A stretch of DNA of 64,000 nucleotides from an uncultured Verrucomicrobiae bacterium (GCA_963731265.1 CAVSUE010000001.1:1152001-1216000), one strand, 5' to 3'; positions 54,559 to 55,007 are shown, numbered from the stretch's first letter. The notes: generated by a model from the letters alone, not told the origin. A program made the numbers and translations.

Positions 54559-54684
54559 CGCGGGGGTTTTGGATAAGCGTCTAAGGATTTCGGGCTGGCT
54601 TCTACGCCGACTGCGATCGCATGCTGAGACAAAGGCCCCTGAAAGATAAAGATTATTATAGGCGCTTATCCAAAACTCGCGTAA
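54556..54684. repeat. Palindromic element with family A-like ends, starting at the rarA stop codon
   Basis: taacgcgggggttttggataagcgtcta / taggcgcttatccaaaactcgcgtaa. Confidence 0.82.
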
Positions 54685-54745
54685 AAAAAAACCCTCCCTC
54701 ACATATCATTCTCTTACCATCGCAAGAAAAATGGTGAAGGAGGGT
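54683..54745 (-). terminator. Rho-independent terminator closing the candidate ncRNA
   Basis: ACCCTCCTTCAC...GTGAGGGAGGGT followed by a T-run on the minus strand. Confidence 0.75.
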
Positions 54746-55007
54746 CAAGAAAGTTTGTTTTCTCAAGCTTTATGGACGAAAGGCTGCTAATGAGGCACGG
54801 CCGATCGTCTTTGGACTCTATTAGAGGCCTTGGTACCTTGAGAACTCTCCTGCCTTTCACGCCTAGACGATTCTTGATCGTCTACAGCAGGGTCAGCGTG
54901 AAATTGTCGCTAGGAGACAAACCCTCTTCGGGCATACATAGGATACGGACTACCGATTTCCTATGCAGCTATGTCGTGAGTCTCATCAAAGGGAATCTGT
55001 TCCCTCA
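54683..55007 (-). ncRNA. Candidate ~325-nt structured non-coding RNA of unknown class
   Basis: Extended -10 promoter upstream, terminator at the end, at least seven helices and a possible pseudoknot; no long sense-strand ORF. Confidence 0.6.

Follow-up and report, generated by a model that had tools for sequence, protein, structure and literature searches.

The closest described counterparts of the RNA reported here are OLE, ROOL, GOLLD and raiA, which are likewise stand-alone, multi-helix molecules with many conserved unpaired nucleotides, a restricted range and an unassigned function, as far as the account in PMC12286853 describes them. In OLE and GOLLD a self-complementary sequence changes yet stays palindromic, and this covarying-palindrome argument served in the same account for symmetric kissing loops, marking contacts between chains (PMC12286853). 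A chlamydial precedent of another kind is IhtA, a trans-encoded non-coding RNA whose locus lies between sctC and a tRNA-Thr gene in vertebrate-pathogenic Chlamydia, according to PMC3469542. The element considered here comes from a 64,000-nucleotide (nt) stretch deposited under an uncultured Verrucomicrobiae bacterium (GCA_963731265.1 CAVSUE010000001.1:1152001-1216000; hereafter the window, from whose first letter all positions are counted). A 538-nt gap between two genes of this stretch (54559-55096) holds, on the minus strand, a stand-alone gene, single copy in the genome, for a stable, highly structured non-coding RNA of ~325 nt with its own promoter and terminator.

The RNA shares with the ornate classes both its general build and its changing palindrome, and departs from them in several respects. 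Unlike the Rfam families OLE, ROOL and GOLLD, and unlike raiA, it matches no Rfam model, is smaller (homologues run from ~205 to 436 nt) and is found in Chlamydiota; unlike OLE and GOLLD, it carries its palindrome in a junction strand rather than a hairpin loop, and multimerization is suggested here by sequence only. None of the 4227 models of Rfam 15 matched at gathering score across the whole window, and a lax-filter search of 54400-55300 at expectation values (E) up to 10 returned two chance-level matches, rli62 (E 1.7, 17.6 bits versus a threshold of 83) and sR41 (E 2.2, 13.2 bits versus 54). Models for T-boxes, hammerheads and other ribozymes gave no match in that region at E up to 10, and ARAGORN found no tRNA-like gene or transfer-messenger RNA (tmRNA) in the window. 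The genome's RNase P RNA (224 bits), tmRNA (139.3 bits) and signal recognition particle (SRP) RNA (51 bits) all lie outside this locus, and no same-strand gene follows the RNA as a cis-acting leader, riboswitch or T-box would need, its terminator being followed by the convergent mgsA. A description of the RNA was not found in the literature searched, beyond which papers may hold one; a genome-by-genome screen for structured RNAs in 26 genomes included Chlamydia pecorum as its sole chlamydial genome (PMC8632094). A first-pass annotation, made by a model from the sequence, had set aside RNase P, tmRNA and SRP RNA, had proposed a stand-alone non-coding RNA of a class it did not recognize, and had suggested looking to Rfam, to chlamydial homologues and to transcripts. 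That proposal is supported by the lack of an Rfam family at gathering score, by chlamydial homologues that exist and covary without coding-type conservation, and by the presence of the sequence, as contigs, in RNA libraries; we rate the RNA as a new, previously unclassified class in environmental chlamydiae.

The minus strand folds at -121.5 kcal/mol (z-score -5.71; 0 of 100 shuffles as good), and the plus strand at -103 kcal/mol (z-score -3.30). A variable 5' domain, made up of hairpin P1, an unpaired GAUGAGGCUCACGAC word and hairpin P2, is followed by the long-range helix P3, which closes two branches: one formed by P4, P5 and P6, the other a three-way junction of P7, P8 and P9/P10 (Table 1). 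In a MAFFT alignment of 45 core sequences, 29 pairs were 89.1% paired and 22 of them showed compensatory change, with 0 of 500 shuffles scoring as high and slid controls reaching 41-47%; a model-aligned set of 61 core sequences gave 89.3% over 29 pairs, 25 of them compensatory (0 of 500 shuffles; slid controls 31-48%). At full length, the RNAalifold structure of 13 sequences has 74 pairs, 93.8% paired and 31 compensatory (0 of 500 shuffles; slid controls 42-52%); to the core it adds P3, P4, P5 and P6, four more helices that covary, and the two-tier terminator. Individual helices hold up well, among them P3 (97.9% paired in the 13 sequences), P7 (96.1% paired in the 61, with compensatory change in seven of eight pairs) and the terminator stem (compensatory change in 10 of 19 pairs of the 13 full-length sequences). 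Distant members replace P3 by GGUGAUUUG/CAAAUCACC or GGCGAUUUG/CAAAUCGCC and have CUUGG/CCAAG as P4, a further compensation read directly from the sequences. By tally, ~104 of 1728 cells in the pair-type table of the 61 sequences are G-U pairs, which would read as A-C mismatches on the opposite strand; the structure therefore belongs to the minus strand.

Much of the fold drawn in the first-pass annotation survives this comparison. Its stem TTTCACGC/GCGTGAAA is P5, and its long-range pair TTCTCAAG/CTTGAGAA is P7, each with compensatory changes; of its four hairpins, those at 54991-55004, 54936-54966 and 54864-54884 correspond to P1, P2 and P6, and the one at 54904-54920 is lost, its 5' arm belonging to P3/P4 in the comparative structure. 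The pseudoknot that it built by interleaving CCTGC/GCAGG with P5 must be given up, for its pairs are 62.5% paired versus 64.2% when shuffled (463 of 500 shuffles do as well) and its 3' strand overlaps the 3' strand of the covarying P4.

The gene also has the limits expected of a separate transcription unit at both ends. An extended -10 promoter had been noticed at first pass and stands, with a -35-like element at a 16-nt distance, and the TGnTAnnnT motif recurs at the equivalent upstream place in most homologues. The terminator noticed at the other end is likewise present as a long, GC-rich stem followed by a run of nine T; the 3' end of the RNA is given as ~54685 or as the end of this U tract at 54683, both ends of the molecule being predicted from sequence. 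The reported contrast in GC content with the 5' side is real (46.5% in the RNA, 19.1% in the 89-nt promoter flank), but the window mean is 46.3%, so that it is the flank that is AT-rich and not the RNA that is GC-rich. Identity to the nearest genome is 98.8% for the RNA, 92.9% for mgsA, 90.0% for the methyltransferase gene on the other side and 86.5% for the promoter flank; judged by such sequence comparison, the RNA is under strong constraint.

Part of a 501-nt stretch around the RNA is held by 20 of 24 listed public sequencing runs, 15 studies being involved, and 13 of the 20 are RNA libraries from soil, leaf litter and rhizosphere, which contain 0.37-0.50 of the sampled words of that stretch. 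Three RNA runs from three studies were compared with one DNA run over 54000-55900. A single contig came from each RNA run (54720-54995, 54722-54991 and 54739-54987); all three match at 100% identity and lie wholly inside the RNA, ending within P1 and within the terminator stem; one of them has a loose end of eight letters whose likeness leads us to take it for sequencing adapter. These ends fit a transcript running from 55007 to ~54685, without proving it. The DNA run, which comes from a ~93%-alike relative, spans both flanks, a contrast with the RNA contigs that amounts to a weak boundary hint only, and the three RNA runs gave no contig on mgsA or the methyltransferase gene, a missing cover that says nothing on level.

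When 41 related genomes were searched at the DNA level, 21 had the element: 16 of 18 genomes of the same genus were positive, as were four of six other genera in the family, and the 16 genomes from other families of the order were all negative. A degenerate pattern derived from the most conserved stretch of the RNA then identified 38 places in a species-level genome collection (36 profile-confirmed, 19 repeating loci already collected) and 13 in metagenome contigs (12 profile-confirmed, eight of the 12 new), and in all 61 distinct homologues were gathered from Chlamydiota genomes and metagenomes. The core was also cast as a covariance model (R1), which matched 21 of 150 scored Chlamydiota genomes: 19 of 21 genomes of the window's family, in addition to the window's own genome, and the one genome of a second family. 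It found none in the remaining 128 genomes from 25 other families, among them 26 genomes of a family with genomes of ~1.1 Mb, and a search with laxer filters in five genomes of five other families reached at best E 0.187. The convergent mgsA lies directly downstream of the RNA in 30 of 45 loci, with upstream neighbors that differ among loci; because mgsA is the usual neighbor, the 1 kb downstream of it was scored at every position in 10 genomes of other families, where the best value was E 1.4. The RNA is restricted to a single family of chlamydiae, with one further genome from a second family.

Most titles of the records with homologues name Rhabdochlamydiaceae, Candidatus Rhabdochlamydia, Parachlamydiales or Chlamydiia/Chlamydiota, and a few name other phyla. 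Records titled Verrucomicrobiae, Acidobacteria/Acidobacteriota or Candidatus Levyibacteriota that carry the RNA are L030, L036, L042-L044, L046, L049, L051, L052, L055, L058, L060-L062 and L065. Where such records have homologues among the earlier loci, mgsA adjoins the RNA, and one of them has a core identical to that of a record titled Chlamydiae; these labels look wrong, or the bins mixed.

Table 1. Positions of the RNA gene, its structural elements and its neighbors, in transcript order
Feature	Positions	Strand	Basis or remark
SAM (S-adenosylmethionine)-methyltransferase-like gene	55097-55807	minus	upstream neighbor of the RNA gene
Promoter: -35-like TTAATA 55041-55036, 16-nt spacer, extended -10 TGcTATATT 55022-55014	55014-55041	minus	consensus scan
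Whole predicted RNA, ~325 nt	54683-55007	minus	predicted start 7 nt after the -10, to end of U tract
P1, 5'-terminal hairpin, 7 base pairs, loop CAGA	54989-55006	minus	minimum free energy (MFE) fold
Conserved unpaired 5' motif UGAUGAGACUCACGAC, consensus GAUGAGGCUCACGAC	54973-54988	minus	unpaired in MFE fold
P2, hairpin with inner mini-hairpin	54935-54967	minus	MFE fold
P3, 5' strand AAGAGGGUUUG, long-range	54918-54928	minus	pairs with 54757-54747
P4, 5' strand UCUCC	54913-54917	minus	pairs with 54850-54846; compensatory in 4 of 5 pairs
P5, 5' strand UCACGCU	54895-54901	minus	pairs with 54863-54857; compensatory in 5 of 7 pairs
P6, hairpin AGACGAU/AUCGUCU	54865-54883	minus	compensatory in 5 of 7 pairs
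P5, 3' strand GGCGUGA	54857-54863	minus	full-length covariation
P4, 3' strand GGAGA	54846-54850	minus	full-length covariation
P7, 5' strand UUCUCAAG, closes three-way junction	54837-54844	minus	pairs with 54767-54760
J7/8 junction strand, hexamer GGUACC	54832-54837	minus	own reverse complement; first G is in the last P7 pair
P8, hairpin, core CCUCU-NAN-AGAGG in most members	54814-54828	minus	90.1% paired; compensatory in 4 of 7 pairs
P9/P10 arm, apical loop CUCAUUA 54794-54788	54775-54809	minus	compensatory in 10 of 10 P9 pairs and 4 of 4 P10 pairs
P7, 3' strand CUUGAGAA	54760-54767	minus	61-sequence covariation
P3, 3' strand CAAACUUUCUU	54747-54757	minus	RNAalifold
Intrinsic terminator: two-tier stem 54744-54692 and nine-U run 54691-54683	54683-54744	minus	sequence and RNAalifold fold
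mgsA/rarA-type AAA+ ATPase gene	53293-54558	plus	convergent, directly downstream of the RNA

How such an RNA may work can be approached from what it keeps and what it lacks. We hold, with moderate confidence, that it is a folded, trans-acting particle with a protein partner, with self-association, or with both, and do not believe that it encodes a protein, serves as a leader or regulates by antisense pairing. It would act in trans through its invariant junction and loop nucleotides, and could serve as a binding platform for a protein, for a second copy of itself reached through GGUACC, or for both. The RNA has no reading frame and no gene to regulate in cis. Its conserved junctions and loops, its modular 5' domain and its palindrome fit a folded particle, and accord less well with a simple antisense regulator; that the next gene is convergent, that upstream neighbors vary and that no frame is conserved argue against a cis-acting or coding role.

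The hexamer deserves particular attention here. GGUACC, a perfect palindrome, is found in most of the 61 members, and its variants tend to preserve self-complementarity: GGUAUC (15 members by tally) pairs with itself through G-U, GAUAUC occurs in L070 (the sister L021 has GGUACC), GUUAAC in L087 and L096 is again a perfect palindrome, and UGAUCA in L098 is shifted by one base. In four members whose first hexamer is broken, a perfect palindrome follows six bases further along, CCAUGG (L006, L007 and L088) or GCAUGC (L017). Within a 12-nt junction window, a palindromic hexamer is present in 55 of the 61 sequences when G-U is allowed, versus 20% of random 12-mers, and in 42 of 61 with Watson-Crick pairs only, versus 7%; taken as a self-pair, the middle position reads GC in 35 members, GU in 16, UA in four, AU in one and something else in five. 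Since neighboring bases of one chain cannot pair mutually, this covariation points to a contact between two chains and hints that the hexamer may form a symmetric RNA-RNA contact. Whether such a contact builds a particle is a more tentative matter: at least two copies might join through the covarying hexamer (GGUACC, GAUAUC, GUUAAC, UGAUCA) into a symmetric body, a possibility that we raise on the strength of these sequence changes and regard with some doubt. By analogy, a dimerizing RNA could conceivably be a compact relative in kind, not a homologue, of the ornate self-assembling RNAs, an equally speculative idea.

Several considerations weigh against the folded particle and its self-association, or against the reach of the data behind them. 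The case for the palindrome draws on two or three double changes that arose independently, ~10 of the 61 sequences have a mismatch in the hexamer, and the hexamer is a junction strand and not a hairpin loop. The alignment of 61 sequences was fitted to the model and so favors the model's own structure. For some of the sequences the scan pattern fixed CYCT/AGAG in P8 and T, A and C in the hexamer, so that the seeming constancy of the junction and P8 stems in part from how sequences were gathered, although P8 and the hexamer do vary among members collected by the model. Within the genus, the DNA search came up empty in two of 18 genomes, one of which has a variant without the P10 arm. In that variant (L113:764-851, from a ~1.3-Mb genome) P7, P8 and the 3' tail are still present, and P9/P10 has shrunk to a 4-base-pair stem capped by a loop of 7 nt, so that this genome does without the UCAUU loop. 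The contigs from RNA libraries carry no strand, exact ends or level, and DNA can sit in RNA libraries. Finally, the mechanism as a whole is one that we infer.

Among the other explanations, a base-pairing small RNA is the one with most to recommend it, and we consider it unlikely. In this account the 5' GAUGAGGCUCACGAC word, or the UCAUU of the P10 loop through its complement AAUGA, would pair near mRNA starts and so alter translation or stability. The promoter, terminator and 5' hairpin all suit such an RNA, the fold leaves the conserved 5' word free of pairing, and the P10 loop, usually (C/U)UCAUUA, keeps UCAUU in most of the 61 members. There is also the precedent of IhtA, which represses translation of hctA (PMC3469542). 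Like IhtA, the RNA is chlamydial and encoded in trans; unlike IhtA, it lies between a methyltransferase gene and mgsA and is found in none of the 26 genomes of the ~1.1-Mb-genome family. IhtA is also much shorter. More damaging to this account, the covarying helices and conserved junctions far exceed what a seed plus terminator needs, the 5' word is missing in more than half of the members and the P10 arm can be dispensed with in one genome. When 4176 putative start regions were scanned crudely for duplexes, the best energy was -33.2 for the 5' word versus -26.5 to -30.3 for shuffled queries, counted as no better, and -26.3 for the P10 loop versus -26.0 to -29.9. A perfect 10-mer complement of the 5' word was found only inside two genes of the genome. 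On contig C1, near 244953 and 251200, two ~4-kb stretches on the same strand, 97% identical and 6.2 kb apart, hold both 10-base complements; they are probably paralogous large genes.

An improbable alternative would make the RNA a very divergent housekeeping regulator of RNA polymerase, in the manner of 6S or Ms1, that fills the apparent 6S gap of the phylum. It is like 6S RNA in standing alone, in being present in many RNA libraries and in belonging to a phylum without detected 6S: the Rfam model (RF00013) has no match in the window's genome and none above cut-off in 150 scored Chlamydiota genomes. However, 6S RNA is rod-like, with paired ends and a large central bubble, whereas this RNA is branched, with a hairpin of its own at the 5' end, a terminator at the 3' end, no closing stem between them and no central bubble, and not even a weak 6S-type match appears in the region at E up to 10. 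Moreover, the RNA occurs in one family plus one genome and 6S is undetected phylum-wide, so that the two distributions are not complementary. A single sub-threshold 6S match, of 34.1 bits, was seen among the 150 genomes.

It is very improbable that the RNA is instead a cis element of mgsA/rarA, be it a 3' region, an antisense partner or a two-way terminator. That gene does lie convergent and directly downstream in two-thirds of the loci (and in the second-family genome), and in some genomes the end of the RNA nearly touches the mgsA stop; yet mgsA was not found beside the RNA in 15 of 45 loci, some of which have short flanks, and ten genomes of other families have mgsA with no such RNA downstream. 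mgsA is encoded on one strand, the conserved promoter and the G-U pairs belong to the other, and the unrelated, hairpin-forming spacer of ~124 nt that separates the two here is absent in a related strain whose RNA is almost unchanged.

Still less credible is a self-cleaving ribozyme, a reading that arises because a few members (L004, L010 and L017, for example) have the hammerhead-core word CUGAUGAG after P1 and because both RNAs have a three-way junction. Unlike the hammerhead, in which CUGAUGA and GAAA form the core between three helices, the word here stands outside the junction and varies in its first bases (UUGAUGAG, UCGAUGAG, CAAUGAG, UUUGAGG); no ribozyme family matches even at the lax threshold, the gene is single copy, and the contigs from RNA libraries run unbroken through the region. 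A small protein gene or gene remnant can practically be dismissed, for although an 82-codon open reading frame (54772-55020, plus) and a 48-codon one (54714-54860, minus) exist in this genome, the longest stop-free frame switches strand and frame among 38 homologues, so that the 82-codon frame is not conserved, substitutions in helices come as compensating pairs, and indels lie in loops and are not multiples of three.

A folded particle acting in trans remains the reading we favor, and some features of the molecule are worth recording beside it. The 5' domain is modular: the window's clade has a long form, other clades have a different or short one, and in one genome palindromic repeats interrupt it. 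Most homologues begin with a hairpin of differing sequence that is the equivalent of P1, P2 is kept in relatives with variable sequence and length, and a CUCACGAC-type word occurs in ~25 of the 61 scanned sequences, these being the forms with a long 5' domain. In L010 (~1052-1350, RNA strand), from the same genus, two copies of a ~100-nt palindromic repeat that resembles a miniature transposon stand in place of the promoter and P1; starting with the CUGAUGAG word, the RNA is otherwise complete. At the other end, the inner hairpin of the terminator (54713-54726, of the type CUUGC-GANG-GCAAG) keeps its loop sequence across the genus, a constancy not usually seen in simple terminators and perhaps the sign of another site of contact. 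Beyond it, the ~124-130 nt between the terminator and the mgsA stop (54552-54683) are absent from a related strain's DNA contig, which has five other letters in their place and an almost unchanged RNA; its predicted fold is a long hairpin (-41.4 kcal/mol), and the segment, which occurs once in the genome, may be a strain-specific insertion.

Two relationships of the 5' word were also considered. Pairing of 5' UGAUGAG with the P10 loop CUCAUUA would make a possible pseudoknot, which is not claimed here. The complementarity extends over 7-9 base pairs in the window's clade, one path of change can be followed (UGAUGAG/UUCAUUA to UGGUGAG/UUCAUUA to GUGGUGAG/UUCACUAU; L037, L065, L086), and the word and loop look swapped in L047 and L074; taken sequence by sequence, the match is mostly no better than with shuffled 5' regions, and conservation of the loop where the 5' word is absent counts against their pairing. 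There is also some likeness to tRNA and T-box elements, since the 7-nt P10 loop reads U-CAU-U and the 5' word mirrors strands of a T arm: the reverse complement of its consensus (54973-54988) agrees at 15 of 15 bases with the two stem strands that remain of the tRNA-Gly(GCC) T arm once the T-loop is taken out, the tRNA-Gly genes compared being those of the same genome (L114:317-478). Unlike tRNA and T-box elements, the RNA has no ARAGORN or T-box match and no same-strand gene downstream. The link to tRNA-Gly is unsupported, the T-arm strands being unchanged in four other genomes, three of which have a changed RNA word, and the likeness could be coincidental or reflect an ancient relationship.

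Chlamydiota have few known non-coding RNAs, of which hardly any is understood, and none was found for the environmental families in the literature searched. An RNA class with a defined fold, promoter and terminator can be annotated in dozens of genomes, and this one is of a size suited to chemical probing, native gels and cryo-electron microscopy, with a palindrome that predicts dimerization. Near-identical copies in the soil, leaf-litter and rhizosphere RNA libraries of many studies make it a possible marker, and it may point to active members of this chlamydial family in metatranscriptomes. Should the proposed self-association prove true, a dimerizing RNA would be a plentiful particle in the environmental chlamydiae of soil and leaf litter, and a new RNA-based cellular structure or regulator.

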